This document shows, one piece after another, positions 21,691 through 44,873 of a DNA stretch of 64,000 nt. The translations under genes and the position numbers were made by a program. Source of the DNA: an uncultured Anaerolineales bacterium (GTDB lineage Bacteria; Chloroflexota; Anaerolineae; B4-G1; SLSP01); contig CAZDSF010000001.1 in NCBI GenBank assembly GCA_964508025.1, forward strand, positions 22,320 through 86,319. The letters are read 5' to 3'. A model generated the notes under the pieces. It was not told the DNA's origin. It made no database searches and saw only the letters and a program-made list of their open reading frames with translations. The stretch's first letter is position 1, and every line of letters begins with the position of its first letter.

Positions 21691-21714
21691 GGCGCTCCTT
21701 TCATCCCGCTCCTT

Positions 21715-22570: not shown

Positions 22571-22612
22571 TATGACTCATGACTTTTTGACTTATGACTC
22601 CTGACTCATCGC
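22571..22612. repeat. TGACTCATGAC-unit repeat (family also at 56640-56700)
   Basis: tatgactcatgactttttgacttatgactcctgactcatc. Confidence 0.5.
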
Positions 22613-23593: not shown

Positions 23594-23598
23594 AGCCT

Positions 23599-25440: not shown

Positions 25441-25446
25441 GGTCGG

Positions 25447-25863: not shown

Positions 25864-25907
25864 GGTTTCACCTCGGTTATAAGTCAAAAGCAAGTCTCCC
25901 CATCTCC

Positions 25908-26450: not shown

Positions 26451-26460
26451 GGGTAAATCC

Positions 26461-27729: not shown

Positions 27730-28196
27730 GCGCCATCCTCGTTGCGGCGGCTCATCTCCAGATACAGCAGGATTTGCCCGATGGTCATGCCGCTGACTTG
27801 TTCGGGCGTCCAGCCGAATTCGCGCGCCAGCACGAAGCAGGCCCGCGCGAGCGGCGTTTGCACCAGTTCTTCCAACTCGTCGCGGGGGGTGCTGATGCCG
27901 CTGATCGCATTGATGCGTTCGACGAGGAATTGCGCCACGCCCGCCGGCAACTGCGCGACCTGTTCGGCCTGCAATTTCGGCTCGACGAGGGCTTGCTGGA
28001 TCATCAATGCGGCGGAGAGGTTGTCATCGTCGCGCGCAGCTTTGCCGATGCGCTGAATATCGCGCACGGTGAGCGGGCGCAGCACCACCCGCCGATCTTC
28101 CATCTCGCGGCCAGCGGCGCGCAGCAACGCGGCAGGGATCTCCACCTCATGGGTGAGCGCCCCACCTGCCAGTAATTCTTCGGCGGTGAGTGTCAT
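27726..28196 (-). CDS. tail assembly chaperone-like protein
   Basis: 156 aa, AGGAGG RBS; position immediately after tube gene and before ruler candidate as in P2 (E) / Mu; helical. Confidence 0.4.
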   Translation of the reverse strand: MTLTAEELLAGGALTHEVEIPAALLRAAGREMEDRRVVLRPLTVRDIQRIGKAARDDDNLSAALMIQQALVEPKLQAEQVAQLPAGVAQFLVERINAISGISTPRDELEELVQTPLARACFVLAREFGWTPEQVSGMTIGQILLYLEMSRRNEDGA

Positions 28197-28212
28197 GGGG
28201 GGGCCTCCTGGT

Positions 28213-28770
28213 TCAGGCGTTAGCGGATTCGCTGAATTCGGGCGCCTTAGCGGTTGGCTCGCCGCCGTTGGCTGCGCTCCGATCTAGCACGCGGATGGTC
28301 AACGCCTTGAAGGTGAGGTTCTCCATGACGAAATCGTCTTCGGGCAGCGAGAAACCCCAATCCTGGAATTTGACGCCCTTGAGCTCCAACGCCACGGTGT
28401 TGCCGGGCGCGGCGGGATCGTTGAGGCTCACGCTCATGTTGAAGGTGGGCTGCACGTAGGGTTCGGCGATGTTGCTGGGCGATGATCCGCGCCCCTGGAG
28501 CAGGAACAGCAGCGCGCCGTTGATATAGGCCCGTCCCACCTTGCCGCTGATGTGAATGTTGCCTGGATGCAGCGAGGTGGCGTGGCGGCGTCCGATCTCG
28601 TGAAATTCTTCCAGATCGGTATGCACGTAGAGTTCGACGTTGGTGACACGCCCCACCGTGAGCAGGTCGTAGGTATCGAGCACGGCTTTGGCGTCGTTCC
28701 CTTCCGGGGTGTCCTCAATCGCCAGGGTCAACGTGCCATTGGCACCGGTATAGATATTGGTCAACGCCAT
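28213..28770 (-). CDS. contractile tail tube protein (T4 gp19 / Hcp-like fold)
   Basis: 185 aa from ATG 28770 (GAGGAGGGG RBS); directly follows sheath with 12-nt gap; size and beta-rich composition typical of tube proteins. Confidence 0.7.
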   Translation of the reverse strand: MALTNIYTGANGTLTLAIEDTPEGNDAKAVLDTYDLLTVGRVTNVELYVHTDLEEFHEIGRRHATSLHPGNIHISGKVGRAYINGALLFLLQGRGSSPSNIAEPYVQPTFNMSVSLNDPAAPGNTVALELKGVKFQDWGFSLPEDDFVMENLTFKALTIRVLDRSAANGGEPTAKAPEFSESANA

Positions 28771-28781
28771 GGTTCCCCTCC

Positions 28782-30446
28782 TCACTCCAGGAACATTGTC
28801 ACTTTGATGTAGTCAATGCTGAACACGGGCCGCAGGACGAGCGTGACGCGCGCGATGCCCTTGATCTCTTCTTCGCGGGTGGCGCTCACGTTGAGTTCGT
28901 AGCCCACCAGCATCTCGTCTTCCACCATCTCGGCCAGGAAGCTGTTGATGGTGGCGCGCATCGCGCTGCGCACCCGCTCGTTGTTGAGCAGGCCGATGTA
29001 CGGATTGGCGGCGGAACGCACGCCGTAGCGGGCGTAATCCACGATGCGCCGTGTGGTGATCTGTTGCCAGGCGGTGTTGGTCGCGGTGGTGATGCCCTTG
29101 ACGACGCGGAATCCCTGCCGCATTTCGAGCGCCAGGACACGCGCCTGCACCAGCTGGCTCAGCTCGGCGGCGGAGAAGCGCCGTTCCAGCCCTCCGACGC
29201 GCACGGGCTTGTTGGTGAGGCTGATGTGCGGGGCCAGCCCGCCCAGCAAACCGGCGACGGCGGCTGCGGCGTAAGCGCCCGGCAAGGTCAATTCTTTGCC
29301 GCTGGCGCTATCGGTGGCGAGGATGCCCGGCGCGACGAAGATCAGCCGATCGCTGGCGAGGGTGTGTCCGCGCAGATCGTCGCTGCTAGCGCCGAGCTTG
29401 CTGCCCACAACCGCGATGCGCTCGTGGCGGATGGCGTCGGTGGAGGCGTTCTGGCAATGGGCGTCCAGCTTCGCGCCGAAGCGGTCATCCTGCCCGGCGG
29501 CCACGAGGATGTGCGCATCCTCGTAGAGCAGCGCTTCCAATCCCGCCTCGTATTCGGCAGCAGAGGCGGCTTCGCCGTTGGCCCCGCCTTTGAAGGCTGC
29601 GAAAGCATCCGCTGCCAGGCTTCTGAGGGGCAGCTCGGCGGCGTGGGCGGCGGCGGTCGCCGTGACCCAGGCCGATTGCGCGGCGATGTCGGCGATCAGG
29701 TCGGCGCCGCTGACGACGATGTAGCTCTCCTTTGCCTCGCCCAGTTTGAGGGTGACTTTGCGAGCGCTGGCCTTATCCACCACGTAACTCGCGGTGATTT
29801 TGTCGGCGGCAGCGATGGCGTCGCCGAAGGTGAGGGCGCCGGTAGCGCGGTTGATTTTCACCTCGCCGGTTGCGGGCGGGGCGGCATCGTCATCGTAGAG
29901 CAGCTTGAGCGAGCGGGTGAGGCCATCGGCGTCGGTGGCGAGGTGAATGCGGTTGCGGGCGCTTTTGACCACGGGGGTGTATTTGAGGGTGATCGGCGGC
30001 GCTGCATTGCCGAGATGCGCTTCATTTTCGATGAAGGCGTTGTCGTCGGCGTCCCAAACATTGACGAGCAGGGCGTTGCCCCAGTTGCCCTCCGTCTTCG
30101 CTTGAAGGGTGACGCAATCGCCGGTGGTGGATTTGAGCGTGGTCGTGGCTTTGGCGGCGCTGGCAGCCGCCACGCGCACCGCGAAGACGGTGGTGGCGCC
30201 GTGTCCGTAAGCCAGTTCCAGGGCGCGGACGAGGGTGAGCTCGTTGCTGAAGCCGTTGATCCAGGCGTCGGTCTCGCCGAAGATGGCGCGCGCTTCGGAG
30301 AGGCTGCCCAGCGTGACGGGCTTGTTGAGCGGCCCTTTGCTCGCCGTGCCTATGACGCCGAGGTTGCCTACTGTGACCCGCCCCGGCACGATCAGTCCCT
30401 CGGCGCGTACTTCGATATAGACTCCAGGTAAAATCATCTCAGCCAT
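28782..30446 (-). CDS. contractile tail sheath protein
   Basis: ATG 30446 after AAAGGAGG; N-term MAEMILPGVYIEV and C-term ...VTLVLRPVFSIDYIKVTMFLE are hallmark sheath-family termini; 554 aa. Confidence 0.85.
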   Translation of the reverse strand: MAEMILPGVYIEVRAEGLIVPGRVTVGNLGVIGTASKGPLNKPVTLGSLSEARAIFGETDAWINGFSNELTLVRALELAYGHGATTVFAVRVAAASAAKATTTLKSTTGDCVTLQAKTEGNWGNALLVNVWDADDNAFIENEAHLGNAAPPITLKYTPVVKSARNRIHLATDADGLTRSLKLLYDDDAAPPATGEVKINRATGALTFGDAIAAADKITASYVVDKASARKVTLKLGEAKESYIVVSGADLIADIAAQSAWVTATAAAHAAELPLRSLAADAFAAFKGGANGEAASAAEYEAGLEALLYEDAHILVAAGQDDRFGAKLDAHCQNASTDAIRHERIAVVGSKLGASSDDLRGHTLASDRLIFVAPGILATDSASGKELTLPGAYAAAAVAGLLGGLAPHISLTNKPVRVGGLERRFSAAELSQLVQARVLALEMRQGFRVVKGITTATNTAWQQITTRRIVDYARYGVRSAANPYIGLLNNERVRSAMRATINSFLAEMVEDEMLVGYELNVSATREEEIKGIARVTLVLRPVFSIDYIKVTMFLE

Positions 30447-30474
30447 TAGTGGTCCTCCTTTCATGGCTTGAATT

Positions 30475-30526
30475 GGCGAAAAAAGCGAATGGCGAATGGC
30501 GAAAAGTGAATGGCGAATTGTGAATG
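30475..30526. repeat. heptanucleotide tandem repeat (GCGAATG-like x7) upstream of sheath gene
   Basis: gcgaaaaaa gcgaatg gcgaatg gcgaaaa gtgaatg gcgaatt gtgaatg; ends 20 nt before sheath RBS. Confidence 0.7.
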
Positions 30527-30536
30527 TTGTCCTTCC

Positions 30537-31589
30537 TCAACGGCGGGATGCCTGGATGTAGACGACGGCTATTGCATCGAGCCGGTCGCCCTGGATGGCG
30601 AGTTCCAGGCGCTCGGTTGGGCCATCCAGCTGAATTGGGGCCGCGAAATGCCGGGTATAGGGGGTGTAGGGATCGGGGATGGCGTTTTCATCCCAATCTC
30701 CCAGGGTGAGGGCGGCAGGCCCGGCGGTGAAAAGCGCGAGAAAATCGGTGAAGGTGGGCAGGGTCGCTTGGGCGTGGCGCGTTGTCGGTTCGGGGCCGGA
30801 GATGGCGGCGAGAAAGGCGTCGAAGGTGGGGAAGTTCAGCGGCGCGCCTGCGGCGCCATCGAAGGTGCGGGTGAGAACAACGGCGGAGGTGGGCGTTGCG
30901 GCGGGAATGAAGGCGAGCGCCCACAGTCCGTGGATCGTGCGCTGTCCGCGCAGGGTGAGCGGGGGCGCGGTCTCGTTGTCCCAGCGGACCAGGTCGGCGG
31001 TGACGAGCAGCCGTTCGTTGTGGGCGCTGTTCACCGCCACGGGGATCTGCGTGATGAGGCTGCGCGCGTCGTCGGCGTCCGCGTACTGGAATTCGTAGAG
31101 CAGGCGGTAGTCGGCGGTCTTGCGCCAGGCGTTCACCGGCGGCAGATGTTCCGGCAGCGAGCTTTCCGTCAGCGCGAAGCGCAACACGCCAGCGGCCCAC
31201 AGCGCGTCGCGGTCTGCTAGCAGGCGCGCGTGAAGCGCATCGGCGGCTGCATCTACGGCGGCGACATCGGCGCCCCACAGTTGGAAACGCGCGCGCACGT
31301 CGAGGCGACCGCCCTTGAGGCTTGCAGGCGCGGGGGTGTCGCGCAGGGCATCGCCCCGGAAATTACCGATTCCCACGGGGCGTTCTTCGATGGCTGCGAG
31401 GGAGACGCCTGGCGGCGGCAACCCGGCGGTCGGTGGGGACAGGTAGCTGCGCAGCAGGGCCAGCAACGCGGCGCTGGCTTGATCGGGGCTGGCGGCGTCG
31501 CCGGCGGCGAAAGCCTGAATCAGACTCGCTGCTTCCAATACCGGTTCTGCTTCAGGTGTGCGGCGGCGGAAAAATGAAAAGAGCGACAC
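30537..31589 (-). CDS. hypothetical first gene of tail cluster (possible tail terminator/cap)
   Basis: 350 aa, GTG start at 31589 per ORF track; no confidently recognisable domain; position upstream of sheath. Confidence 0.35.
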   Translation of the reverse strand: MSLFSFFRRRTPEAEPVLEAASLIQAFAAGDAASPDQASAALLALLRSYLSPPTAGLPPPGVSLAAIEERPVGIGNFRGDALRDTPAPASLKGGRLDVRARFQLWGADVAAVDAAADALHARLLADRDALWAAGVLRFALTESSLPEHLPPVNAWRKTADYRLLYEFQYADADDARSLITQIPVAVNSAHNERLLVTADLVRWDNETAPPLTLRGQRTIHGLWALAFIPAATPTSAVVLTRTFDGAAGAPLNFPTFDAFLAAISGPEPTTRHAQATLPTFTDFLALFTAGPAALTLGDWDENAIPDPYTPYTRHFAAPIQLDGPTERLELAIQGDRLDAIAVVYIQASRR

Positions 31590-31888
31590 GTTCGTTGTTC
31601 CTTGTGTGAATGCGTCCTGCGGCTAGAGGAGAACGCGGCTGGAGTCTGGATACAGGAACAAGCGATTGTAGCCAACAGGGTGACAGCGCAATCGAAACTA
31701 TAATTTCAGTCTAACATAAATTGGTAAAGATAGAGTCAAGAATGGGTTAAAACGATCCTGAAACATGACACAATTCTTAATGCTCCGGGGTTGTGTCACA
31801 GGTTGCGTGGTTTTCGGTGGTAATAGCAGATTGCTCAGGTTTTTTTATGATTAGGATGCTGGAATTTTTCCGAAAATCACAATTACTG

Positions 31889-31896
31889 CTATAATA
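31889..31896 (+). promoter_or_regulatory. extended -10 (TGcTATAAT) candidate promoter for hybrid HK operon
   Basis: ttactgctataat ~40 nt upstream of ATG 31936 within 346-bp AT-rich divergent intergenic region. Confidence 0.4.
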
Positions 31897-31935
31897 GGGC
31901 TGTATTGTTATGTTTGTGATGGTTTATGGAGGTTT

Positions 31936-33096
31936 ATGTCTGGCGCGGCGCATGTGCTTTTTGCTAATATTTTGATTGCCTCTACCGAGATCGAGTTTGC
32001 GCGCCAATTGCGCATTGTGTTGCAAAATGCAGGGTACGTGGTGCGTGTCGTGAGGAGCAGCGAGGCATTGCTGAATACCTTGACGCTTGCTCCGCCGGAT
32101 TTGCTGTTGCTCGATGCTGCGTTGGTTGATACAGATAGGGCGGCGCTGGTGCGGCGCATCAAGGCGCATGTTGGGCAAACCTTCATGCCGGTTATCATGC
32201 TGGCTGAGCCTACGAATGAGGTGGATTTTGCAGCCGCTATCAATGCTGGGGCTGATGAGCTGCTTGATAAGCCGTTCTCTAACGCAGAGCTCCTGGTCAG
32301 AGTGCGGTCCATGTTGCGCCTTAAGGTCAGCACCGATGAGCTCCGCACGCTAAACGCCACGCTCGAGCAGAAGGTTATCGAGCGCACGCAAGCCCTGGAA
32401 GCTGCTCATGCTGCCCTCCGCCACACTGAGAAGCTTTCCGCACTGGGGCGGTTGGCGGCTTCGGTAGCGCATGAAATCAACAACCCGCTTTCGGGTATTT
32501 TGACGTACATTTATCTGATCAAGAAATATGAGACGCTGCCAGAGCTCCAAATAAGCGAGGATCTTGCGCTTATCGAACGGCACGTCAATGCTATTGCTGG
32601 GCTGGTCAAGCAGCTGCAAAACTTTTCTAAACCGCCGCAGCAGGTGCGGAAGCCGGTATCGCTAGCTGTAATTTGGAATGATGTGTTGGCGCTGGTGCGC
32701 AAAGACCTGGAACGCCGCAAGATTCAGGTCATATTCAATCCGCCTGCCGATTTGCCCCTGGTTATGGCGTCTGCCGATCAGCTGAGTGAGGTTTTTATGA
32801 ACCTGACGCTCAACGCGCGGGATGCCATGCCTGAAGGTGGACAGCTCACGATCCAGATTACAGCGGAGGGTGAAAGCCTGATGGTTGGGGTGGGCGATAC
32901 CGGCATCGGTATTCCACCGGATGTGCAGGAACATCTCTTTGAGCCGTTCTTCACTACCAAAGGCGAGCAGGGAACGGGATTGGGATTGGCAATCTGTTAT
33001 CGCATCATCGAAGAGCACGCGGGTGAAATTTGTGTGGATAGCGCGCCCGGTGCAGGGACGACGTTTACTATCCGCCTGCCGCTGGCGGTTGTGTAA
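31936..33096 (+). CDS. hybrid sensor histidine kinase (N-terminal REC, HisKA, HATPase)
   Basis: REC-like N-terminus (LLLDAAL..D...), H-box SVAHEINNPL, G-box GTGLGLAI. Confidence 0.8.
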   Translation: MSGAAHVLFANILIASTEIEFARQLRIVLQNAGYVVRVVRSSEALLNTLTLAPPDLLLLDAALVDTDRAALVRRIKAHVGQTFMPVIMLAEPTNEVDFAAAINAGADELLDKPFSNAELLVRVRSMLRLKVSTDELRTLNATLEQKVIERTQALEAAHAALRHTEKLSALGRLAASVAHEINNPLSGILTYIYLIKKYETLPELQISEDLALIERHVNAIAGLVKQLQNFSKPPQQVRKPVSLAVIWNDVLALVRKDLERRKIQVIFNPPADLPLVMASADQLSEVFMNLTLNARDAMPEGGQLTIQITAEGESLMVGVGDTGIGIPPDVQEHLFEPFFTTKGEQGTGLGLAICYRIIEEHAGEICVDSAPGAGTTFTIRLPLAVV

Positions 33097-33152
33097 ATGA
33101 TTGGCAGCTTCTAAGGGCAAAAGCCTGGTGTTCGACTTGGTCCTGATCTGGA

Positions 33153-33779
33153 GTGCAATCCATGTTCATCAATTGGAAAACTCGTGAACTCAATCTCAAC
33201 CTCGTCTACTATGGGCCGGCGTTGAGCGGGAAGACCACCAACCTGGAGCAAATCCACGCGCGGCTCAAGCCGACTTCCCGCAGCGACCTCTTCACACTCA
33301 ATACGCACGAAGATCGCACCATCTTCTTCGATTTTCTGCAGCTGGAGATTGGAGAAATCGCGGGCCTCAAGCCCAAGTTTGGGCTGTACACGGTGCCGGG
33401 ACAGGTCTATTACGCCGCCACCCGTGAGGCGGTGTTGCGGCGCGCAGACGCGGTGGTGTTCGTGGTGGATTCGCAGGCGGAACGGCTGGAAGACAATCGG
33501 GCCGCCTGGCGCGACATGGAAGGGCAGCTAGAGCGGATGCATCGCTCCCTGGCAACCACGCCTGTGGTTGTGCAGCTCAACAAGCGCGATCTGCCCTCGG
33601 CCCTGCCCGTCGCGGAGCTGCGCGCGGCGCTGGATATCGGTGCGCGGCCCTGCCTCGAGGCGATTGCCGCGCAAAACCAGGGCGTTCCAGAGACGCTGCA
33701 TGCGGCTATGCGCATGTTGTTCATAGATGTCCAGCGCAAACTTGCAGCTGCCCAAACTACACCAGGAGGCTCCGCATGA
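33153..33779 (+). CDS. MglA-like Ras-superfamily small GTPase
   Basis: INWKTRELNLNLVYYGPALSGKTTNLEQI (P-loop), ...VVQLNKRDL (NKxD); stop overlaps next start. Confidence 0.7.
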   Translation: MQSMFINWKTRELNLNLVYYGPALSGKTTNLEQIHARLKPTSRSDLFTLNTHEDRTIFFDFLQLEIGEIAGLKPKFGLYTVPGQVYYAATREAVLRRADAVVFVVDSQAERLEDNRAAWRDMEGQLERMHRSLATTPVVVQLNKRDLPSALPVAELRAALDIGARPCLEAIAAQNQGVPETLHAAMRMLFIDVQRKLAAAQTTPGGSA

Positions 33780-34138
33780 AAGAAGTGCAACGGCTCATCC
33801 GCGAGCTGGGGCAATCTGAGGGATTCAGCACCGTCGTCTTGACCGATGCTTCTGGTTTGCCGATGGCGACTTCAGAGGATTTCGAGGCGGCGCAAGCCTT
33901 GGCTGCCATCGTCGCCGAGGTGTTGCGTGTGGCGCAACGCGCCGGCGAGCGGCTAAGCATGACCGACCTGACGGAGATCATGTTGCTCTCGCAGGACGCA
34001 CAACGAGGGGTGCTTTACCGGCAGTTTGAGGCTGGCGGACGGCGATTGGTGTTGGCGATGGTCATCCAACCTAACCACGCTTATTGGCCCACCACTACCC
34101 GTGTCATCCGTGAGATACAGCAGTTAATGCAAAAGTAA
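33776..34138 (+). CDS. Roadblock/LC7 domain protein (MglB-like)
   Basis: 120 aa, ...GFSTVVLTDASGLPMA... pattern typical of Roadblock/LC7; translationally coupled to GTPase. Confidence 0.65.
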   Translation: MKEVQRLIRELGQSEGFSTVVLTDASGLPMATSEDFEAAQALAAIVAEVLRVAQRAGERLSMTDLTEIMLLSQDAQRGVLYRQFEAGGRRLVLAMVIQPNHAYWPTTTRVIREIQQLMQK

Positions 34139-34153
34139 GAAAGTGAGGGAGCT

Positions 34154-34879
34154 ATGGCGCTTCAAGGTACATTGGGCGATTTGAGCATCCCGGATTTGAT
34201 CCAGCTGCACTGTCAGTCTGGCAGCGTGGCGCGGTTGCTGGTGCGTGGGTTGCAAGGGGAACAAAGCGACCTGTATTTCGCGGGCGGCGAGATCGTCCAC
34301 GCTGCCTGCGGTGATCTGCAAGGCGCTGAGGCGGTTTACGAATTGCTCACCTGGGAAGAGGGCAGCTTCGAGGTGGAGCAAAATGCAGCCGCACCTGCGC
34401 GCACGGTGCAAATTCCCTGGTCAGCCCTGTTAATGGAGGGTCTGCGTCGTGCGGATGAGCGACGGCAGGCCAAAGTTATCTCAGCAGAAAAGGAGCATAA
34501 GATGTCAGGAGAGACCCGTCGTGAACGTTTGGCTAATATCCTCAGCCAGCTGGTAGAAACCTCTGGTGATGTCCGAGGCGCGGCCATTGTGGGCCGCGAC
34601 GGTTTGATTATCGCCGCGCATCTCCCGGCCAAGATGGAGCAGACCCGCGTGGGTGCGGTGGCGGCTGCGCTGCTCAGCCTTTCGGGGCGCTCGGTGGGGC
34701 AGCTGGAGCGCGGCGACTTCCAGCAGACGCTCATCCAGGGTACGGATGGTAACATCGTTATCACCGATGCCGGCAAGAACGCTGTCTTTGTCGCCCTCAC
34801 CGGCAAGGATGTGAATCTGGGCATGGTCTTCCTGGAAGTGCGCGAATCAGCCGCTGCCATTGCCGAAATCCTGGGTTGA
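34154..34879 (+). CDS. DUF4388-like N-terminal domain fused to Roadblock/LC7 domain
   Basis: GDLSIPDLIQLHCQSGSVARLLV...GEIVHA...AVYELLTWEEGSFE (DUF4388-type) then ...AAIVGRDGLIIAAHLP... Roadblock-like. Confidence 0.55.
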   Translation: MALQGTLGDLSIPDLIQLHCQSGSVARLLVRGLQGEQSDLYFAGGEIVHAACGDLQGAEAVYELLTWEEGSFEVEQNAAAPARTVQIPWSALLMEGLRRADERRQAKVISAEKEHKMSGETRRERLANILSQLVETSGDVRGAAIVGRDGLIIAAHLPAKMEQTRVGAVAAALLSLSGRSVGQLERGDFQQTLIQGTDGNIVITDAGKNAVFVALTGKDVNLGMVFLEVRESAAAIAEILG

Positions 34880-34892
34880 AAGGGGACGCCTC

Positions 34893-35435
34893 ATGGCAAA
34901 GGTTATGGATGAAATCAAACGGGTAAGTGAGCTCAGCGACGCAGACCGCGCGCTTCTGGCTGAGATGCGCACCGTGGTCGAAAACCAATCGCCAAAAATT
35001 GTGGCGCTGTTTTATGAGCATTTGCAGCGTTTCGACCACCTCAGCGTATTGCTCAACGCCGAACCGGGCCGGGTCGAACGGCTCAAGGGGCATTTGCAGC
35101 AGTGGCTCATCACATTGACCGAGGGCGATTATGGTGATGTCTACTACGAGCGCCGCTATCGGATCGGCAAACGGCACGTTGAGGTGGGGTTGGAACCGCG
35201 CTATGTGATGGCGGCGATGGCCTTCTGTCGCGCCCATGCTGCCCGGCTCATCGTCGAGGAAGCGTATGCCGCCGACCCACACAAAGACGCCCGCGCGCGC
35301 GCTCTCAACCGGGTGATGGATATTGATCTCAACATCATGCTGCAATCCTACGACGACCACCGCATCGCCCAATTCCTGGAAGTCACCGGCTTCAGCCGCG
35401 AGTTGTTCGATAATTTGATGTCAGGACTAGGGTAG
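34893..35435 (+). CDS. sensor globin (protoglobin / globin-coupled-sensor type globin domain, stand-alone)
   Basis: ...RIGKRHVEVGLEPRYVMAAMAF... matches proximal-His region of GCS globins; 180 aa. Confidence 0.55.
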   Translation: MAKVMDEIKRVSELSDADRALLAEMRTVVENQSPKIVALFYEHLQRFDHLSVLLNAEPGRVERLKGHLQQWLITLTEGDYGDVYYERRYRIGKRHVEVGLEPRYVMAAMAFCRAHAARLIVEEAYAADPHKDARARALNRVMDIDLNIMLQSYDDHRIAQFLEVTGFSRELFDNLMSGLG

Positions 35436-35521
35436 TGTTGCTGGCTGCTGGATTGCAATCATTGCAATTTTCTGCATGGGTTTTGCGGTGAGATTTGCTG
35501 ATTTGCAGTTTTTACGGGAGT

Positions 35522-36283
35522 ATGAATATGCCAACACAAGTTTTGTTCGAGAATGCCGAACACAAAAATATCCTATTGGAAGATTTCACGTCCGGGCAGA
35601 TGGTGCAGGCGAATCAGCACATCATCATCCACAAGGGCAAGGGGATGTTGCTCGATCCGGGCGGGCACAAGGTCTACTCCGAAGCGCTGGACGAGCTCTC
35701 CACCGTGTTGCCGTTGGGCGCGCTACAATATATTCTCTTCTCGCACCAAGACCCGGACATCATCGCGGCAGCCAATGGCTGGTTGATGGTGACGAATGCG
35801 ATGGGGTTCTTGCCGCAACTGTGGATCCGCTTCATCACCCATTTTGGGGTGGATGAGCTGGTAATGGACAACATTACGCCCATCCCTGACGCTGGGCTGG
35901 TCATCAACCTGGAAGGTGCGAAGTTGCCCCTGCTGCCCGCGCACTTCATGCACTCGGCGGGCAACTTTCAGCTCTACGATCCCATCGCCAAAATCCTCTA
36001 CACCGGCGACCTGGGCGCTTCGCTGGGGCAGACTTATATCACCGTGACCAATTTCGATGACCACATTCAGTACATGGAAGGCTTCCATCGCCGCTACATT
36101 GCCTCCAACCGGGTGCTCAAACTCTGGGCGCAGATGGTGGCCCCGCTGGATATCGAAATCATTGCCCCGCAACACGGCGCGATGATTGTGGGCAAAGAGA
36201 ACGTCCAGCGCTTCATCCAGTGGGTGCAAGGGTTGGAGTGCGGCATGGATTTGCTGCAAAGTGCTTACAAACTGCCCAAGTAA
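35522..36283 (+). CDS. MBL-fold protein related to flavodiiron N-domain / oxygen-binding di-iron protein (ODP-like)
   Basis: ...ILFSHQDPDII... metal-binding motif, additional His (HFMHSAG); ~55% GC vs ~64% flanks. Confidence 0.5.
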   Translation: MNMPTQVLFENAEHKNILLEDFTSGQMVQANQHIIIHKGKGMLLDPGGHKVYSEALDELSTVLPLGALQYILFSHQDPDIIAAANGWLMVTNAMGFLPQLWIRFITHFGVDELVMDNITPIPDAGLVINLEGAKLPLLPAHFMHSAGNFQLYDPIAKILYTGDLGASLGQTYITVTNFDDHIQYMEGFHRRYIASNRVLKLWAQMVAPLDIEIIAPQHGAMIVGKENVQRFIQWVQGLECGMDLLQSAYKLPK

Positions 36284-36296
36284 ATATCGTCGTGAG

Positions 36297-36333
36297 ACCT
36301 GACAGGTTTTCTGAAACCTGTCAGGTCTGAGAT
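36297..36333 (+). terminator. perfect hairpin after ODP-like gene
   Basis: agacctgacaggtttt ctg aaacctgtcaggtct. Confidence 0.5.
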
Positions 36334-36346
36334 AAAGTAGGAGACT

Positions 36347-37345
36347 ATGACAGAGCAGGCGCGTATTCTGGTGGTAGATGATGATGACCTCGCGCGGATG
36401 GGGGTGCAACGTGTTCTGAGCCGCGAGGGGTATGCTGTGATGGAAGCTGCAAGCGCCGAGCAAGCATTGGAGTGCTTGCGCCAGCAGCGCTTCGAGCTGG
36501 TGATCACGGATTTGCAGATGCCGGGCATGGATGGCTTCGAGCTGTTGCAGGCGCTCAAGCAGCGCGGTTCGCAGCTGCCGGTGCTGATGTTGACCGGGCA
36601 CGGCTCGATGGAGACAGTCCTGCAAGCGTTGCGGCACGGCGTCAATGATTTCCTTACCAAACCGTATCAGCCGGAGGAGTTGCTCACAATTGTGGCGCGC
36701 GAGGTGGCGCGTTACCGGCAGAGTCTTCCCCCTGGTGTGGAGACGACGTTGGGCTTGCATCTACCCGCCGCCGATCTGGAGCGCCTCGATCAGCTGTTGG
36801 CTGAGCTGCGCGCCGAGATCAGCGCCCGGTGCGTGCTGCTGGTTGAGGGCAATGGCTCGGTCATCGCCAGCAAGGGCGCGCTGCAAGAGATCAACGTGGG
36901 CGCGCTGGCGGCGCTGGTCGCCGGTGATTTTGCCGCCACCGCCGGGATCGCCTCCCTCATCGGCGAGAGCGATGCTTTCAAGCTGAACTATCACGAAGGC
37001 GAGACTTACAGCGTCTACTCCGCTCAGATCATCCCCAGCGTGTTTATGCTCATCATCTTCAGTCAGGATATCAAACTGGGGGCGGTGATGTACTATGCCC
37101 GGCACGTCTTGGAGAATGCGCAAGCCATCCTCAAGCGCGTTGCCATAGCCATGCCTGCGCGCCCCGCAAACGTTGCGCCAGCCTCCGCGCCGCCGGAGGA
37201 AGCTCCCGCCGCCGCATCGTCCGCGCCGGAGTCGGAGGATTCAGAGCTGTTTTCGCTGGATCAAATGCTCTCCAGCGGGCTGCTCGATCCCGATCTGCTC
37301 GACAACCTGGATGCGCAATTCAAGAAACTGTGGGGGAATGGCTAA
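36347..37345 (+). CDS. response regulator receiver fused to Roadblock/LC7-like domain
   Basis: ILVVDDDDLARMG...ITDLQMPGMDG...LTKPY (REC, phospho-Asp region) then ...VLLVEGNGSVIASKG... Roadblock-like; Pro/Ala-rich tail. Confidence 0.65.
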   Translation: MTEQARILVVDDDDLARMGVQRVLSREGYAVMEAASAEQALECLRQQRFELVITDLQMPGMDGFELLQALKQRGSQLPVLMLTGHGSMETVLQALRHGVNDFLTKPYQPEELLTIVAREVARYRQSLPPGVETTLGLHLPAADLERLDQLLAELRAEISARCVLLVEGNGSVIASKGALQEINVGALAALVAGDFAATAGIASLIGESDAFKLNYHEGETYSVYSAQIIPSVFMLIIFSQDIKLGAVMYYARHVLENAQAILKRVAIAMPARPANVAPASAPPEEAPAAASSAPESEDSELFSLDQMLSSGLLDPDLLDNLDAQFKKLWGNG

Positions 37346-37515
37346 CAGCGCTGGTTTGGCAGCATCAAGCGCGCGCACTTTCTCACAAGTGCGCGCGTTG
37401 TGTTTTGTCCACCGTTTCCTTGTACTCAAGTACAAGCCATAATTCGTTCATCCGCCTGATGACACAAATCGAAACCTCGATTACAATCAAGGTATTCCAG
37501 AACAGGGAGCGCATC

Positions 37516-39150
37516 ATGCCGAATTTGAACCGTCCTATCAGAATGCGGGTGCAATACAAGCTGACGCTGACTTATGTGTTGTTGGGGTTGGCAACGTTGC
37601 TGATTGCGCTGTGGCGCCCCTGGGTCGCGGTGGTCGGTCTGCTGGCGTTAAGCGCGCTACTTGGCTGGATGGGTGCGCGGCGCTTGCGGCGGGTGCTGGA
37701 GATCACCCAGGCCTGGTTGCGGGGCCATCTGGCGCTGCGCATTGCCGATCCCGTGACCGATGATTTTGGGATGCTGACGGCGCAGTTGGATGTGCTGGCA
37801 GCGCATCTCAAAGAGGATGAAGAGGATCTGGAAGCGTTGCGCGAGCACAATGCCCGGCTCACGGATCAGGTGCGCGCGCTGGCGGTGGTCGAGGAGCGTA
37901 ATCGCCTGGCGCGGGAGCTGCACGATAGCGTGAAGCAGCATCTCTTCAGCCTGACGATGACGGCAAGCGCTATTCGGGCGCGGTGCTCGGCGCAGGTGTT
38001 GCCAGAGGATGTCCGGGAGATGCTGGAAGAAGTTGAACGGGCAGCCCAGGCGGCGCAGCGCGAGACGACGCGCTTGATCGAGGATCTGCGTCCCGGTTCG
38101 TTGAAGGAAATGGGCTTGATTCGCGCGGTGAATGACTACAGCTTGCTGTTGGGCGCGCAGGAGCATCTACTGATCTATGTGGATGTGGGTGGTTCGGATC
38201 AGCACATCCCGCTGCCGGTGACGGAGGCGCTCTATCGTGTGGTGCAGGAGGCGTTGCACAATGTCGTGCGGCACGCGCACGCTACGCGGGTGGATATTAT
38301 GCTGCACTGTCTGCCTGCTTCGGTGACGTTGCGCATCAGCGATAATGGCGTGGGCTTCGATACGAGCGCACCGCATAGCGGGTTGGGTTTCACGAATATG
38401 ACCGAGCGCCTGATGGGGGTGGGGGGCAAACTGACGGTTGAAAGCCGGCTGGGTCGCGGCACAACTGTAAATGCCGAGGTCAATTTGCCGGGGCGGCGGA
38501 GTGTGCTCCTGGCCGGCGCGGACGCGCAGCCCTATCGGCCTGATGTGAGCGTGGAGAACTGGGCCTGGTTGGGGCAGCGGTTGGTCATTCCGGTGGGGCA
38601 GACCTGGCCCTGGTTGCCGACTGAGCAGCGCAATCTGCGGCGTCCGTTGGCTGATCCCATTGATGGGCCTTTCATCATTCGCAAAAGCCGCAGTGTGTTG
38701 GGTTTACGGATGGCTTGTCAGTTGCGGGCAGCCGGATCTGGCGTGGCGTTGGTGGAGATTCACACCACGGCTAACGGCTATAGTTGGGACATTGAGGGGG
38801 CATCCTGGGAATTGCGGCGAGTGCGCGGGCAGCGGGGACGCATGTTGCTGCTGCGCAAGCGCCAACCGTTGGCGGCATTGCAGTATCAGGGCCGTCAAAT
38901 CCGCAGCTGGACCGAGATTAATTTCGACGATCATGGCTATAGCCTGGCGCCGGGACGCGAAGGCGCCGGGACGTGGACTGTGCTTGATGAAAGCGGCGCG
39001 GCGCTGATGATGTTATCCTGGTCAGGCGATACGTTGTCCATTGCGTTGCAACATGCGGCGCCGCTGCCGTTGCTGACGCTGATTGCAGCGCGGGTGTTGG
39101 ATGAGCAATTGTTGTTCGTGGCTTTGGAATCTGCCGGCAAGGACGGTTGA
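37516..39150 (+). CDS. NarX/LiaS-type sensor histidine kinase (HisKA_3 + HATPase) with ~220-aa uncharacterised C-terminal extension
   Basis: two N-terminal TM segments, H-box RNRLARELHDSVKQHL, ...SDNGVGFD..GLGFTNMTERL; extra domain after HATPase. Confidence 0.7.
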   Translation: MPNLNRPIRMRVQYKLTLTYVLLGLATLLIALWRPWVAVVGLLALSALLGWMGARRLRRVLEITQAWLRGHLALRIADPVTDDFGMLTAQLDVLAAHLKEDEEDLEALREHNARLTDQVRALAVVEERNRLARELHDSVKQHLFSLTMTASAIRARCSAQVLPEDVREMLEEVERAAQAAQRETTRLIEDLRPGSLKEMGLIRAVNDYSLLLGAQEHLLIYVDVGGSDQHIPLPVTEALYRVVQEALHNVVRHAHATRVDIMLHCLPASVTLRISDNGVGFDTSAPHSGLGFTNMTERLMGVGGKLTVESRLGRGTTVNAEVNLPGRRSVLLAGADAQPYRPDVSVENWAWLGQRLVIPVGQTWPWLPTEQRNLRRPLADPIDGPFIIRKSRSVLGLRMACQLRAAGSGVALVEIHTTANGYSWDIEGASWELRRVRGQRGRMLLLRKRQPLAALQYQGRQIRSWTEINFDDHGYSLAPGREGAGTWTVLDESGAALMMLSWSGDTLSIALQHAAPLPLLTLIAARVLDEQLLFVALESAGKDG

Positions 39151-39201
39151 TCGGTTGCTGTTCATTGTTTGCATGTAGAAAGCATCAGAAAGGAGTGCGC
39201 T

Positions 39202-40062
39202 ATGAGACACATTATCGGGTTTTTGTACACGCTGAAGCCTTATGAGCGAGGTATTCAGGAGACCTTCGGCAAGTACGCGCGTTTTGTCTTGCCGGGATTG
39301 GGCTTTCAGATTCCCATGCTCCAGGTCATTCGGGTGCGGGATATTCGGGAGCACACGATGGATATTCCGCCCCAGCCAGTGATTACCAAGGACAATGTCG
39401 AAATTCGGGTGGATGGCGTGATGTGGGTGCGGCCCAAGGCAGATGAGGAGTCCATCAAGCGCACTTTCTACAACATTGACAATTGGAAGCGCGCGGTTGT
39501 GCAGCTGGCAATGACGAATTTGCGTCAGGAATTTGGCGATTTGACGCTCGATGAGAGCCTGGTCGCGCGGGAGAAGATTGCCAATAATCTGCAAGCAGTG
39601 CTCAACAAGTTCGCCGATGATTGGGGCCTGATCGTCAGCAAGGTTGAGATTATGCTGATTGACCCGCCTGAAGACATCAAGCGCGCCATGCATAAGCAGA
39701 AGACCGCAGAACAGGAGCGGCGTGCGATGCGCCTGTTAGCGACGGGCGAGTTCGAGGCGGCAGAGCAGCAGAAGCTGGCGACCATCCAGCGCGCGGAAGG
39801 CGAGCGCGAGGCGGCGATTCGCAAGGCCGAAGGTGAGCGTGAAGCGTCCATCAAGGTGGCGGAGGGGCGCGCCGAGGCGATTCGGCTGGTGAACGAGGCC
39901 GCGGAGAAGTATTTCCAGGGTAACGCGCAATTGCTGCGCCAGCTGGAAATGACGGAGACTGCGCTACGCGACAACGCGAAAGTGGTCGTCACGCAAGATG
40001 GCATCAGCCCCACACTGTTGTTGGGCGAGCTGCCGCTCAGCATGAAGCGACGGGAGTCGTAG
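39202..40062 (+). CDS. SPFH/band-7 (stomatin/prohibitin-like) protein
   Basis: ...QETFGKYARFVLPGLGFQIPMLQ...ITKDNVEIRVDGV...EAAIRKAEGEREA... typical of SPFH family. Confidence 0.8.
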   Translation: MRHIIGFLYTLKPYERGIQETFGKYARFVLPGLGFQIPMLQVIRVRDIREHTMDIPPQPVITKDNVEIRVDGVMWVRPKADEESIKRTFYNIDNWKRAVVQLAMTNLRQEFGDLTLDESLVAREKIANNLQAVLNKFADDWGLIVSKVEIMLIDPPEDIKRAMHKQKTAEQERRAMRLLATGEFEAAEQQKLATIQRAEGEREAAIRKAEGEREASIKVAEGRAEAIRLVNEAAEKYFQGNAQLLRQLEMTETALRDNAKVVVTQDGISPTLLLGELPLSMKRRES

Positions 40063-40185: not shown

Positions 40186-40213
40186 GATTTGTGTTTTTTA
40201 TATGGAGCTAGCC

Positions 40214-40561
40214 ATGACAGATATGGAGCGTCCGTCTTACTATTATGACGAGGAAGAACAGCCGCGCCGGAGATCGGGCGGGGGCGCCGGGGGCTTTTTC
40301 TTGGGGCTGGTGCTGGGCCTGGGACTCGGTTTTTGGGGCGGGCGCAGCCTGCCAACCGATTTCTTTGGTCCAGGCTTCGAGTGGGCTTTGGCCGCCATTG
40401 TGCCGTTGGTGATGTTGATCGCGATTATGGGACGTTTCCGCCAGCGCGTCGAGTTTCGATCGTTGCCGGAAGAGCGGGCGCGGGGGTTGCTGCTCGTCAT
40501 GTTGGGGTTGATCCTGGCGACCGGGATCGCCGTGGCGATGTTGGCGACGCTGAGCCGGTGA
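40214..40561 (+). CDS. small membrane protein, Gly-rich
   Basis: 115 aa, GGAG RBS, three predicted TM helices. Confidence 0.4.
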   Translation: MTDMERPSYYYDEEEQPRRRSGGGAGGFFLGLVLGLGLGFWGGRSLPTDFFGPGFEWALAAIVPLVMLIAIMGRFRQRVEFRSLPEERARGLLLVMLGLILATGIAVAMLATLSR

Positions 40562-40568
40562 GGTGGAG

Positions 40569-41264
40569 ATGACGGAAAGAGCCGCCGATGTTGACAGCAT
40601 CACCGTCTTCATTGTGGATGATCACGATGTGGTGCGCAAGGGATTGCGCTTCTATCTGAGCGCCCAACCGGATGTGGTCATTGTGGGTGAGGCGGGCGAT
40701 GTGCTGAATGCGGTCAATGGCGCGGCGCAACAGATTCCTGATGTGGTGCTCATGGATCTGGTGTTGCCGTTACAACCGGGGCGCGAGCCTTCGGATCAAG
40801 GCGGCGTCCAGGCGACGCGCCGCATCCGTGAGATCAGCCCGCACACGCAAGTGGTGGTGCTCACCAGCTACGTGCAAGATGAGTTGATCTTCTCGGCGAT
40901 CAAGGCGGGGGCGCTTTCGTATTTGCTCAAGGATGCCGATGCCGAAACGGTGCTGCGCGCCATCCGCGCGGCAGCGCAGGGCGAAGCCACGCTCCATCCG
41001 CGCATTGCTCGCCGCTTGATGGCTGAGGTCTCCGCGCCAGCGCAGGCGCGCAATCCTGCTGCCGGACTCACCCCCCGCGAGCTGGAAGTGTTGCAGCTCA
41101 TCGCGCAGGGGCAGTCTAATCTCGAAATTGCCGAGACATTGGTGGTGACGGAGCGCACCGTCAAGGCGCACGTCAGCAATTTGCTGAACAAGTTGCACCT
41201 TTCGGATCGCACGCAGGCAGCGATCTATGCCTGGCGCGAGGGGTTGATCGAAGAAAAACCGTGA
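40569..41264 (+). CDS. NarL/LuxR-family response regulator
   Basis: REC (VFIVDDHDVVRKG...MDLVLP) + LuxR HTH (LTPRELEVLQLIAQGQSNLEIAETLVVTERTVKAHVSNLL). Confidence 0.85.
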   Translation: MTERAADVDSITVFIVDDHDVVRKGLRFYLSAQPDVVIVGEAGDVLNAVNGAAQQIPDVVLMDLVLPLQPGREPSDQGGVQATRRIREISPHTQVVVLTSYVQDELIFSAIKAGALSYLLKDADAETVLRAIRAAAQGEATLHPRIARRLMAEVSAPAQARNPAAGLTPRELEVLQLIAQGQSNLEIAETLVVTERTVKAHVSNLLNKLHLSDRTQAAIYAWREGLIEEKP

Positions 41265-41317: not shown

Positions 41318-44300
41318 TTAAGGTTGTTGCAGCGTATGCAGCAGCGGTAGGAAAAGGGTAAACGTTGAGCCTTCCTTGACTGTGCTTTCGATTTCTATCC
41401 ATCCGCCGTGCATTTCCACAATCTCTTTGACGATAGCCAGCCCCAAGCCGGTCCCCGATTTCTGCATCAGTTGCGGTACCTTGCCACGGAAAAAGCGTTC
41501 GAAGATGTGCGGTAGTTCGTCTTCGGGGATGCCGATGCCGTTGTCCTGGATGGTCACAGCGGCCCAGCGGCGTTGCGCTACTTCGACCTGGTTGATGGCA
41601 ACGGCGACTTCTCCATCTGTTAGCGTGTACAGAAGTCCATTTTCCACCAGATTGTTGAGCACTACCACCAATTGTTTGGGGTCGGCCAGGATTTGCATGT
41701 CTTGGGCCGGGGGCGAATATCGCAGCTGCACCCCAATTGCACGTCCGATGGCTTGATGATTACCAATTACCAGCTCTACCAGTTCATCCAGGCGTGTAGG
41801 CTCAAGGCGCAATTCCACTCGTCCGGCGTCAATATGCGCGAGTTGGAGAATCTTCTCTACCAGTTGCGCCAAATGCTCCACGGCCTGCATCAGCATCTCG
41901 GCATAGCGGGGCGCTTTATCAGGCTGCTTGAGCATCAGTTCGGTGTAGAGTTTCATTGTGGTAACGGGTGTGCGCAGCTCTTGAGAGACGTTGGCGACAA
42001 AGCCGGATTTCATACGCTCCAGGGCTTTGATCTGGCTGATATCGTGGATTGTCACCACGGTTGAGGGTTGCTGCGCTTTGGCCCCCGAAATGGGCGCCGC
42101 GTTGAGTTGGAGATCTATTCCGGCAAGGCTCAACACGATATGCGGGGCGGCCTCTGTGGAGGTGACAAGCCGCTGGATGGCGGTATGCAAGTGGGCCGCA
42201 TCTTCGGGCGATAGCGTGCGCGTGAGCAGGTCTTGCGCTACGGGATTGGCCTGGAGAATCTGTCCGTGCGCGTCGGCGACGATGATGCCATCGGAAGCGC
42301 CATTCAGAATGGCATCAAGGCGGGCGAGCTGCGCCTGAATCTGCGCCGTGCGTTTCTGCACCCGGCGTTCCAGCTCGCTCGCGTAGTCTTGCAATTCGCG
42401 GTACAGCCGGGCGTTTTCGATGGCGCTGGCGGCGTAAGGCGCGAAAAGCGCCAGCCGGCGCGCATCATCCGCGCTGAAGCGGTTGGGGGTTATGGCATCT
42501 ACATTGAGAAAACCTAGCATTCTTTCTCCCATCCGCACAGGCGCGCCTACGTAGGAACGCAGCCACACGGTATTAGGGTCTTCTGGAGGAATCCAGTTGG
42601 CTTCTATCAGCGTGTCGGCGATGATGACAGGTGCACCGGTCTCAACCATTCGCCGCAGGGTGAAAGTCCGCTCGATGGACATTGGGCTTTGTTTTGGGGC
42701 GCGGGAGGCTGGAATCTGCTCGTAGCCCCGGTGGCGCACGGGACGCGCATAGTCCCTTTCGATCAGCATGATGTTACATGCATCCCCATTCATAATACGC
42801 TGAATCTGTTCCAGGATCCGATCCAGGACTTCGTTGTGATCCAACGTGCCTGTGACCGCCGCCGCAGCCTGCGCCAGAGCTTCCGCTAACTCTCGCTGTT
42901 CGCGCTCGGCCTCGAAGAGCTGGCTGTTGGCGACAGCGATAGCGGCCTGGGCGGCGAAGGCTTCTGCCAGGCGCGCATGTTCCTGGGTGTAGAACCCAGT
43001 TTCGTGCTTATCGAGTGCGATCATCCCGATAGGTTCATTCCCGATGAGCAGCGGCGCGCCTAGCCAGGAGTGGATGTTGGCGGGAGCATGAGGCTCTTCC
43101 TGGAAATTGTCGTACACCGTCGGCGCATCCTCGACAATGAAAGTAGCTCGCGTGCGCATCACCTCGCAGTTGGGATTATCGTTGGCGTTCAGGTCGAAGG
43201 TCAGCCCCAGCAGTTCCTCCAGATTGGGAAAGCCATGCCCGCCGATGATCTCCAGGTGATGCCCTTTCAGCAGTTGCACCGATGCGCTATCGTAGGGTAC
43301 CACTTTGCGAAGTTCCGTGAGGATTTGTTTGATGACCTGGTCGCGATCTACGGTGGTGATCATCGAAAGGGCCGCGGTGCGCAGCGTTTCTGCTTCCTGG
43401 CGGCGTTGTTGTTCTGCTTCCAGTAGCCGTGCATTTTCCACTGTGACGCCGATCTGATCGGCGAGCACTTCCAGGATGAACAGGTCGTCCTCATTGAAGG
43501 CATTCAATTCGGCGCTTTGCACATCCAATACCCCGATGATCTGCCCCTTGATTTTGATGGGGACCGCGAGCTCGGAGCGGGTGGCAGTCAATTCCTCCAG
43601 TTGCCAGTAACGCGCTTCCTGGGTCACATCATTCACCAGCAGGGGTTGCCCATGCGCCGCGACCCAACCGCAAATCCCCTGGGTTCCTACTTGCAACTCG
43701 ATGGTGCGCGTGGATTCCACTGCAAAACCGGATTTGGCTCTGAGGCTGAGTTTTGTCTGAGTGGCATCCATGAGCAGGATCACTACATAGGCGTATTTGA
43801 ACGTCATGCGAATCAGATCAGCAATCCGTTCCAGCAATGGTTCTGGTTCGAGCAAGGAGCTGACCTGTTGGCTTACTTGCCACACCAGCAGCAGTTGTTT
43901 GGCGCGTCGTTCCAACGCCTCCTGTACGCGGCGGCGTTCGACGAGCTCCATTTGCGCTTTTTGGTAAAGCCGGGCGTTCTGGATGGCGATGGCGGCTTGA
44001 TCGGCCAAGGCTTTGAGGTGTTCGAGATCGGCATTCTGGAAAGCTCCCACTTCAGGGCTTTGCAAATCCAGATTCCCCAGCACGTGGGATTCATGGATGA
44101 TGGGCAAAACCAGCTCGGCCCGCGTATTGGGCACAAATTCCCAGTATCGCGGATCCTCGCGCACATCATCCACGACGACGATGCATTGGTGTTCATAGGC
44201 GTAGCCGTTGAGTCCCTTGCCGAGGACGACGTTGTTGTTTAACGCGAAAGCGGTTTCTTCCGGACTGAATCCCAGGAGCGTGTTGATCTGCAGACAGTTT

Positions 44301-44764: not shown

Positions 44765-44873
44765 GTCCGTTCCCCTGAAATTGTGAAGGATGAAAGCAGA
44801 AGGAGGAAGCATTTCTGCGCTGCGATTTTCCTCTCCTGTAGCTGCACCGCAGATTCAGTAAACACGTGAGATA

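Follow-up and report, generated by a model that had tools for sequence, protein, structure and literature searches.

We analysed a 64,000-nucleotide stretch of DNA (hereafter the window) from an uncultured Anaerolineales bacterium of the phylum Chloroflexota, focusing on seven open reading frames (ORFs) that all lie on the plus strand and together fill positions 31936–37345. In order, they encode a histidine kinase, the small Ras-like GTPase MglA, a small Roadblock/LC7 protein (Robl1), a PATAN–Roadblock fusion (PATAN-Robl; PATAN is Pfam DUF4388), a stand-alone globin, a protein of the oxygen-binding di-iron protein (ODP) family, and a receiver domain (REC) fused to MglB (Table 1). An initial annotation, made from the sequence, had assigned named domains to all seven genes, including one Roadblock fused to DUF4388 and one fused to REC, and a hidden Markov model check placed every one of these calls above the Pfam gathering threshold. 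This gene content suggests that an MglA/MglB switch may be joined here to two-component input and to two gas or metal sensors.

Table 1. Genes and putative control elements of the seven-gene block (window coordinates)
Feature	Position	Strand	Evidence or remark
Presumed promoter region, AT-rich divergent intergenic	31590..31935	+	346-nt gap upstream of gene 1
Histidine kinase, predicted pseudo-receiver-HisKA-HATPase_c	31936..33096	+	Pfam Response_reg 8e-15, HisKA 1e-9, HATPase_c 2e-28
MglA, predicted Group-1 small Ras-like GTPase, 205 aa	33162..33779	+	alternative GTG start 33153
Robl1, small divergent Roadblock/LC7, 120 aa	33776..34138	+	Pfam Robl_LC7 9e-7
PATAN (DUF4388)-Roadblock fusion, 241 aa	34154..34879	+	Pfam DUF4388 4e-22, Robl_LC7 3e-17
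Stand-alone sensor globin (protoglobin/globin-coupled sensor type), 180 aa	34893..35435	+	Pfam Protoglobin 4e-32
ODP-family MBL-fold protein, 251 aa	35528..36283	+	Pfam PF19583 1.4e-66; alternative starts 35522, 35495
REC-MglB fusion, 332 aa	36347..37345	+	Pfam Response_reg 2.5e-35, Robl_LC7 4.5e-5
Terminator-like hairpin, 13-bp stem, 8 G-C pairs, T-rich tail	37368-37399	+	23 nt past last stop

The locus appears to be one transcription unit, judging from a gene overlap, Shine-Dalgarno motifs and the terminal hairpin. A Shine-Dalgarno-like motif precedes an ATG for all seven genes. The co-directional operon described in the initial annotation stands, while its overlapping stops reduce to a single real overlap, the ATGA at 33776–33779 shared by mglA and Robl1, which as read from the sequence would couple the two translationally. 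With the ATG starts that have both Shine-Dalgarno and homologue support, the remaining gaps measure 13–65 nt and reach about 90 nt before odp; TTG or GTG starts that would create other overlaps are unlikely. Upstream, the gap between gene 1 and a minus-strand gene ending at 31589 carries TATAAT at 31890–31895 and GGAGG just before the ATG at 31936, and a sigma-70 scan, in which sites were no commoner than in shuffled sequence (4 against 4.1), did not establish a promoter. Because the terminal hairpin is followed by a promoter-like site (37459–37487, 10/12 matches) and the downstream gene differs in orthologous loci, we conclude that the operon ends at gene 7. The same three observations ruled out, as an eighth gene, a HisKA_3 kinase ORF that nominally starts at 37330.

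The GTPase, its Roadblock proteins and the kinase

The GTPase is a genuine Group-1 MglA, in agreement with its first assignment as MglA-type. Its best matches in the PDB were the MglA proteins of Thermus thermophilus (3t12, 2.6e-53) and Myxococcus xanthus (5ymx/6h17, 4e-50), and the next family, Arf-like, reached only 8e-9 (phmmer); identity to the solved MglAs is 50–55%. Hallmarks of Group 1 are an Arg finger beside the G2 threonine, TVPGQ at G3 and NKxD at G4 (PMC4316618). Counting residue conservation in 22–33 orthologues per protein, we found the P-loop YYGPALSGKTT and the motifs DRT, TVPGQ and NKRD to be at least 95% conserved (30 orthologues for MglA), and DRT, which comprises the Arg finger and the G2 Thr, aligns with R53-T54 of M. 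xanthus. Homologues begin at MFINWK. The length of the protein lies within the 190–210 aa of single-domain Group-1 members, and its gene is coupled to one for an MglB homologue, as is characteristic of that group.

The initial annotation had described the three Roadblock proteins as having the MglB-type GAP/GEF fold. All three are Roadblock proteins, of three different kinds, and only the REC-fused one is an MglB orthologue. The C-terminal half of gene 7 matched MglB of M. xanthus (2.6e-14) and T. thermophilus (2e-12) in phmmer searches, and the NCBIfam MglB model at 1.5e-16, which is under that model's equivalog cut-off. The chain is laid out as a canonical receiver, an MglB Roadblock domain, a Pro/Ala-rich disordered linker and a conserved C-terminal helix; with its fused N-terminal receiver it is longer than single-domain MglB proteins (129–179 aa). 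An AlphaFold (AF2) model built from 53 homologues (mean pLDDT 85) had MglB 6hjm (TMt 0.89, rmsd 1.7 Å) and 1j3w as top PDB matches in Foldseek, with TMt of 0.84–0.90. Equivalents of A64 and G68 of M. xanthus MglB, which we take to be MglA-interface residues, are kept (LTAGNVAAMGG vs LVAGDFAATAG) and conserved in 33 and 53 homologues. Conservation in the receiver is complete or at least 90% at D11, D12, D55, T83 and K105, and this domain is the sole canonical phospho-acceptor in the operon.

Robl1 was found in about 24 of the 30 loci with mglA coverage. Its family profile matched an Asgard Roadblock in the PDB (7f8f, 1.4e-7), and assignment as an MglC or MglB orthologue was rejected, the profile matching generic or Asgard Roadblock proteins only and no NCBIfam model. 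The Roadblock domain of PATAN-Robl (AF2 model, pLDDT 92.7) likewise resembles an Asgard Roadblock, 9jue (TMt 0.96, rmsd 0.8 Å; Foldseek); it is also near CvnB of the Streptomyces conservons and merely 15–22% identical to MglB. For the fold of the PATAN domain, no PDB neighbour was found among the top 50 Foldseek matches.

The kinase is predicted to be cytoplasmic, with no transmembrane segment and no sensor or other input domain. Its catalytic core is intact, with at least 95% conservation of His179 in the H-box and of the N, G1 and G2 boxes among 29 orthologues. At the phospho-Asp position of its REC (D60 here), by contrast with a classical hybrid kinase, 7 of these orthologues have Asp and 13 have Ala, and the acidic pair is not conserved, reading S-T-E in the window protein. 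In most orthologues the domain is a pseudo-receiver. Because the REC is N-terminal and the phospho-Asp position is mostly not Asp, the earlier label of hybrid kinase is misleading.

Putative sensor proteins and conservation of the block across Chloroflexota

The globin fits its first description as a stand-alone sensor globin, consisting of one domain. Its PDB matches were Tlr1989 (8h17, 3.8e-21), on which no literature was found, the AfGcHK globin (5ohe, 3e-19), GsGCS (2w31, 2e-16) and HemAT (6e-9). Residues aligned with AfGcHK Tyr45 and His99, presumably the distal Tyr (B10) and the proximal His (F8), are at least 95% conserved, a feature shared with globin-coupled sensors such as HemAT and AfGcHK. 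With no attached transmitter, the protein is not a globin-coupled sensor in the strict sense. A globin coupled directly to a Roadblock domain occurs naturally in the Methylacidiphilum fusion HGbRL (PMC4476040), whereas the window globin is separate and optional, and belongs to the protoglobin/globin-coupled sensor lineage in place of the flavohaemoglobin-like lineage of HGbRL.

The claim of an ODP-like protein was strongly supported. The PF19583 score was 224.5 bits against a cut-off of 27.2, and the solved ODPs of Thermotoga maritima (6qrq, 1.4e-66) and Treponema denticola (6qnm, 2e-59) matched over residues 14–260 at about 50% identity. The motifs HQDPD, PAHFxHSxGN, GDxGA and APQHGA are common to the window protein and both solved structures, and at least 95% conserved in 22 orthologues. 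A reading as a flavodiiron enzyme was rejected, there being no flavodoxin domain and an NCBIfam match of only 0.01. Like the T. denticola protein (TDE2498, acting with the soluble chemoreceptor TDE2496 and CheA), the window ODP is a stand-alone chain. The T. denticola ODP senses O2 as a separate subunit in a chemotaxis kinase pathway that controls movement (PMC7666581), and by analogy we propose a similar role here. The partners differ: neither the operon nor the window encodes methyl-accepting chemotaxis protein or Che domains, and the ODP is accompanied instead by Roadblock and PATAN domains, the HisKA kinase and MglA/MglB.

We then scanned the ODP protein against one genome per species and obtained 80 loci, comprising 34 Chloroflexota loci with the block and 46 others; the closest was that of an uncultured Anaerolineales metagenome-assembled genome (MAG), at 98% identity. 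The profiling of the operon across Chloroflexota proposed in the initial annotation was carried out by tblastn with the seven window proteins over the 34 loci, which come from Anaerolineae, Chloroflexia and Thermoflexus. The block recurred in the order pseudo-receiver kinase, MglA, (Robl1), PATAN-Robl, (globin), ODP, REC-MglB wherever the contig reaches, with unrelated flanks. Such an order in about 34 genomes or metagenome contigs with different flanks is far beyond chance. The constant members are the ODP, MglA, a PATAN-Robl-type Roadblock, REC-MglB and the kinase. PATAN-Robl was found in 34/34 loci, although in L043 the domain directly before the ODP seems to be a stand-alone Roadblock, and the globin in 24/34. 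The ODP is a core member and the globin an accessory one. Conserved synteny suggests that both O2-type sensors are functionally part of the GTPase module, as the initial annotation had proposed, with the globin dispensable. The association suggests that oxygen or iron may control the MglA/MglB switch directly.

An extra stand-alone Roadblock, about 60% identical to the Roadblock domain of PATAN-Robl, lies directly before the ODP gene in L008/L009 (9743–10123), L030, L031, L032, L043 and L048. It takes the place of the missing globin in L008/L009, L030 and L032, and L031 has both. Full-length homologues of REC-MglB form about 92 clusters and those of PATAN-Robl about 100, and all named sources are Chloroflexota. 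Public annotations of these homologues are uninformative or wrong ('DUF4388 domain-containing protein', 'response regulator'). Two REC-MglB homologues (P0131 and P0146) are named 'sigma-54-dependent Fis family transcriptional regulator', which contradicts their domain content.

Some Chloroflexota also carry paralogous MglA modules that lack the ODP (L010/L011 3073–6804; L025; L033; L092 2816–9819), sometimes immediately upstream of the ODP module. These contain a kinase with a REC, a REC-MglB-like protein (32% identical), an MglB-like Roadblock of 167–179 aa and an MglA (53% identical), together with a small unknown protein, a PATAN protein and an RdxA_C protein.

The combination of a histidine kinase, a Roadblock protein and an MglA-family GTPase is also the hallmark of the Streptomyces conservon, which consists of the CvnA kinase, CvnB Roadblock, CvnC DUF742 protein and CvnD GTPase (PMC4316618); a haem protein gene adjoins some conservons (some with a P450), as the globin gene does here. 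If the operon worked in this way, the GTPase/Roadblock complex would regulate the kinase, an unlinked response regulator would control expression or development, and REC-MglB would serve as a phosphate sink or in feedback. The pseudo-receiver of the kinase could dock MglA or a Roadblock protein in such a scheme, and the paralogous MglA modules likewise have kinases and several REC proteins. We consider this scheme unlikely. The window GTPase belongs to Group 1, with its Arg finger and TVPGQ, whereas conservon GTPases are of Group 2 and lack that finger. The operon contains no DUF742/CvnC protein and no counterpart of the membrane-bound CvnA, a HAMP kinase with an LPxR tail; conservons, for their part, have no receiver, ODP, globin or PATAN domain. 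In addition, the sole canonical receiver is fused to the GTPase-activating protein (GAP) and co-conserved in all loci, and no DNA-binding regulator is conserved beside the block. Membership in the conservon family itself was rejected on the GTPase group, the missing DUF742 protein and the soluble kinase.

ODP and Roadblock genes in other phyla

The 46 other ODP loci were distributed over Desulfobacterota, Myxococcota, Nitrospirota, Calditrichia, Gammaproteobacteria, Acidobacteriota and Aquificota, with one divergent Chloroflexota locus, and their ODPs are 56–63% identical to that of the window. No MglA or globin was found nearby in any of them. In 37 of the 46, a Roadblock gene of about 122–150 aa lies directly upstream of the ODP gene on the same strand, and the Roadblock preceding the ODP in Desulfobacterota is 37% identical (E 4e-25) to the Roadblock domain of the window's PATAN-Robl. 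In 24–26 of the 46 loci these genes are followed by ones for REC-PATAN, a ParA/MinD-like ATPase and a protein of 200 aa without a Pfam match, and a large HD/HDOD-PAS kinase lies within 7 kb in 17, usually between the ODP and REC-PATAN. Examples of this cassette (loci L047–L091) are L085 8713–13138, L049 9560–15350 and L088 9604–14944; the ODP is sometimes present in two copies. A protein of 391 aa from a 2-kb contig (P0345) contains Response_reg, PATAN and Robl_LC7 in one chain, joining domains that Chloroflexota and Desulfobacterota distribute over separate proteins in different ways.

From their gene content, the ODP, one Roadblock subtype, PATAN, a receiver and a kinase appear to co-travel across phyla in shuffled fusions, and Roadblock-ODP looks like a conserved pair. 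Since this association recurs across phyla, we infer that the ODP signals through a Roadblock domain. More tentatively, the ODP and its dedicated Roadblock could possibly be a widespread and unrecognised O2/Fe(II) sensor-transducer pair serving different NTPase-based cell-polarity modules: an MglA switch with a phosphorylation-controlled REC-MglB in Chloroflexota, and a REC-PATAN/ParA-like cassette in Desulfobacterota, Myxococcota, Nitrospirota, Gammaproteobacteria and others. If this is true, oxygen and iron control cell polarity directly, with no chemoreceptors involved, and REC-MglB is the first bacterial small-GTPase GAP to be switched by two-component phosphorylation.

These loci also bear on whether the ODP and globin might be O2/NO-scavenging or detoxifying proteins that an oxygen-sensitive organism merely co-expresses with the MglA module. 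Flavodiiron O2/NO reductases, to which the weak NCBIfam match points, have the MBL di-iron fold as well, and the window encodes a pyruvate:ferredoxin oxidoreductase, suggesting anaerobic metabolism. We nevertheless regard scavenging as very improbable: the flavodoxin domain needed for turnover is absent, the protein is close in sequence to sensor ODPs, its slot between PATAN-Robl and REC-MglB is fixed in the 34 loci, and the Roadblock-ODP pair recurs in other phyla within signalling cassettes. The globin, too, is of sensor lineage, being closest to the sensor domains of AfGcHK, GsGCS and HemAT.

A proposed signal path and its possible outputs

MglA and MglB are the paradigm of Ras-like polarity control in bacteria, and the Frz chemosensory pathway of Myxococcus is their only known environmental input. 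The window operon shares with the switch of M. xanthus and T. thermophilus a Group-1 MglA, which has its own Arg finger as well as TVPGQ and NKRD, and a Roadblock GAP, MglB, in which the interface Ala and Gly and a C-terminal helix are kept. Also as in the M. xanthus system (Frz, FrzX, RomR-RomX, MglC), there are extra Roadblock paralogues, and phosphorylated receivers would feed the switch. The two systems differ in that the window receiver forms one chain with MglB, the operon itself encodes a simple HisKA kinase in place of the CheA-type Frz system, RomR and RomX homologues are missing from it, and an ODP, a globin and a PATAN-Roadblock are built in. The PATAN domain recalls cyanobacterial PatA-type (PATAN-REC) regulators of type IV pili, in which it acts within a phosphorelay controlling the direction of surface movement. 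Here it is followed by a Roadblock domain and not by a receiver, so that the protein is not of PatA type, and binding to a pilus motor can be suggested by analogy.

We propose the following path. The ODP (di-iron; O2, Fe(II)) and, where present, the globin (haem; O2, NO or CO) would shift state with oxygen or redox conditions and would signal by protein contacts, most probably from the ODP to the Roadblock domain of PATAN-Robl; alternative or added contacts could be made with Robl1, with the pseudo-receiver of the kinase, or with both. These contacts would set kinase autophosphorylation, and the kinase would phosphorylate Asp55 of REC-MglB. Phosphorylation would alter the GAP activity or location of MglB, a fused equivalent of the situation in Myxococcus, where phosphorylated FrzX acts on MglB. 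The altered MglB would set the amount and position of MglA-GTP, which, possibly together with the PATAN domain, would steer a surface apparatus, for instance pili or a gliding motor, in its polarity or activity, and the outcome would be an oxygen- or iron-tactic response or an aggregation response. Support for single steps comes from Group-1 MglA/MglB, which act in cell polarity (PMC4316618, PMC3199381), and from PATAN as an output domain, which in Synechocystis binds PilB1 and PilC (bioRxiv 10.1101/2021.06.11.447907). For an MglA/MglB switch wired to a two-component phosphorelay and two gas or metal sensors, with the full path as proposed, we put the chances at about even.

Several points weigh against this path. 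Its direction of information flow follows domain logic only, the contacts of the ODP and globin with the kinase or Roadblock proteins are a proposal, and the putative iron ligands of the ODP are identified from conserved motifs. The globin cannot be essential, because it is missing from 10 of the 34 loci. The MglA GTPase cycle may differ from those of the models: Ala20 (33219–33221) occupies the position of Ras Gly12 and M. xanthus MglA Gly21, and the same P-loop Ala is found in every Chloroflexota MglA homologue inspected, paralogues included. Substitutions at the Gly12-equivalent position slow GTP hydrolysis in Ras and MglA, and G21V in M. xanthus MglA lowered kcat seven-fold (PMC3000849). 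With regard to output, the initial annotation had proposed an aerotactic reversal module for a gliding filament. A motility output is inferred: Pfam searches of 20 flanking proteins revealed no pilus, gliding or flagellar gene in the 64-kb window, the genome is a MAG of an uncultured member of the Anaerolineales, and cultured Anaerolineae are described as non-motile.

The same signalling could have another output in a non-motile filament, such as aggregation by means of adhesive pili of the Tad type or type IV, processes at the septum or cell pole, or O2-triggered filament fragmentation. The module is carried by Anaerolineae and by Thermoflexus (locus L046, Thermoflexus sp.), and cultured Thermoflexus, too, are described as non-motile. 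Chloroflexales seem to carry Tad pili only, near the septa (PMC7332563), and in other lineages MglA is reported to govern pilus formation and predation and not gliding (PMC3983030). On the other side, all characterised Group-1 MglAs act on motility or pilus polarity, PATAN domains work on the pilus extension motor, and the one known role of ODP is in taxis; adhesion or aggregation would still be compatible with all of these. We think an output other than motility reversal improbable.

The initial annotation had also held that this wiring is undescribed, and we found no description of it in the searchable literature, though individual pieces have been noted before. Five REC-MglB fusions, and PATAN genes that occasionally lie next to mglA/mglB, appear in a 2014 survey, with no linkage to a kinase, ODP or globin (PMC4316618). 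The searchable literature contained no paper combining ODP with Roadblock, and MglA, Roadblock and globin were combined only in the HGbRL fusion paper (PMC4476040). Substantive coverage of MglA in Chloroflexota was limited there to the 2014 survey, the homologue table of PMC3000849 and a 2026 gliding review linking neither, and no experiment linking MglA to motility in the phylum was found. The novelty lies in an MglA/MglB switch that brings its own two-component input and its own gas or metal sensors. The Roadblock-ODP pair shared across phyla adds a second and possibly more general observation. It widens the role of ODP from spirochaete chemotaxis to a Roadblock-coupled signalling pair in several phyla. 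The operon provides the first candidate regulators of surface behaviour in Chloroflexota. It also offers a simpler route that can be rebuilt in vitro, with one soluble kinase, a GAP-fused receiver and two small sensor proteins with spectroscopic handles (haem and di-iron), and the sequence from sensor to phosphorylation, GAP and GTPase becomes directly testable.

A further element lies within the operon. The 63-nt spacer between odp and REC-mglB contains a perfect 15-bp inverted repeat, AGACCTGACAGGTTT-TCTG-AAACCTGTCAGGTCT, at 36295–36328; the spacer has a folded free energy of −28 kcal/mol, and no T-run follows the repeat. The hairpin was rejected as a family feature, being kept (with one mismatch) in the closest relative L012 only, and other orthologues have short spacers or unrelated hairpins at this place. 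It may serve in mRNA processing or stability, or be a palindrome to which a protein binds.

Pfam searches of the 20 flanking proteins identified a phage-tail-like cluster, other two-component systems and metabolic genes. Directly upstream of the operon and divergent from it, a phage-tail-like or contractile injection cluster occupies 11972–31589 on the minus strand. It includes a sheath protein (28782–30464; Phage_sheath_1C 1.9e-13), a tube-like ORF (28213–28785), a spike OB-fold protein (21715–22521; Phage_base_V 1.4e-6), a protein with PG_binding_1 and OmpA domains (23599–25440) and very large proteins with no Pfam match, among them 11972–15532 (1186 aa) and 16784–19222 (812 aa). Downstream, a separate unit begins with a membrane HisKA_3 kinase (37513–39150), whose C-terminal ~220 residues match no family, and continues with an SPFH/Band-7 protein (39169–40062), a small membrane protein (40202–40561) and a LuxR-type response regulator (40563–41264). 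Further along are a histidine kinase of 1164 aa with four GAF domains and a PAS domain (41318–44812) and a BTAD-NACHT/NB-ARC-TPR regulator of the STAND type with 1153 aa (59289–62750).

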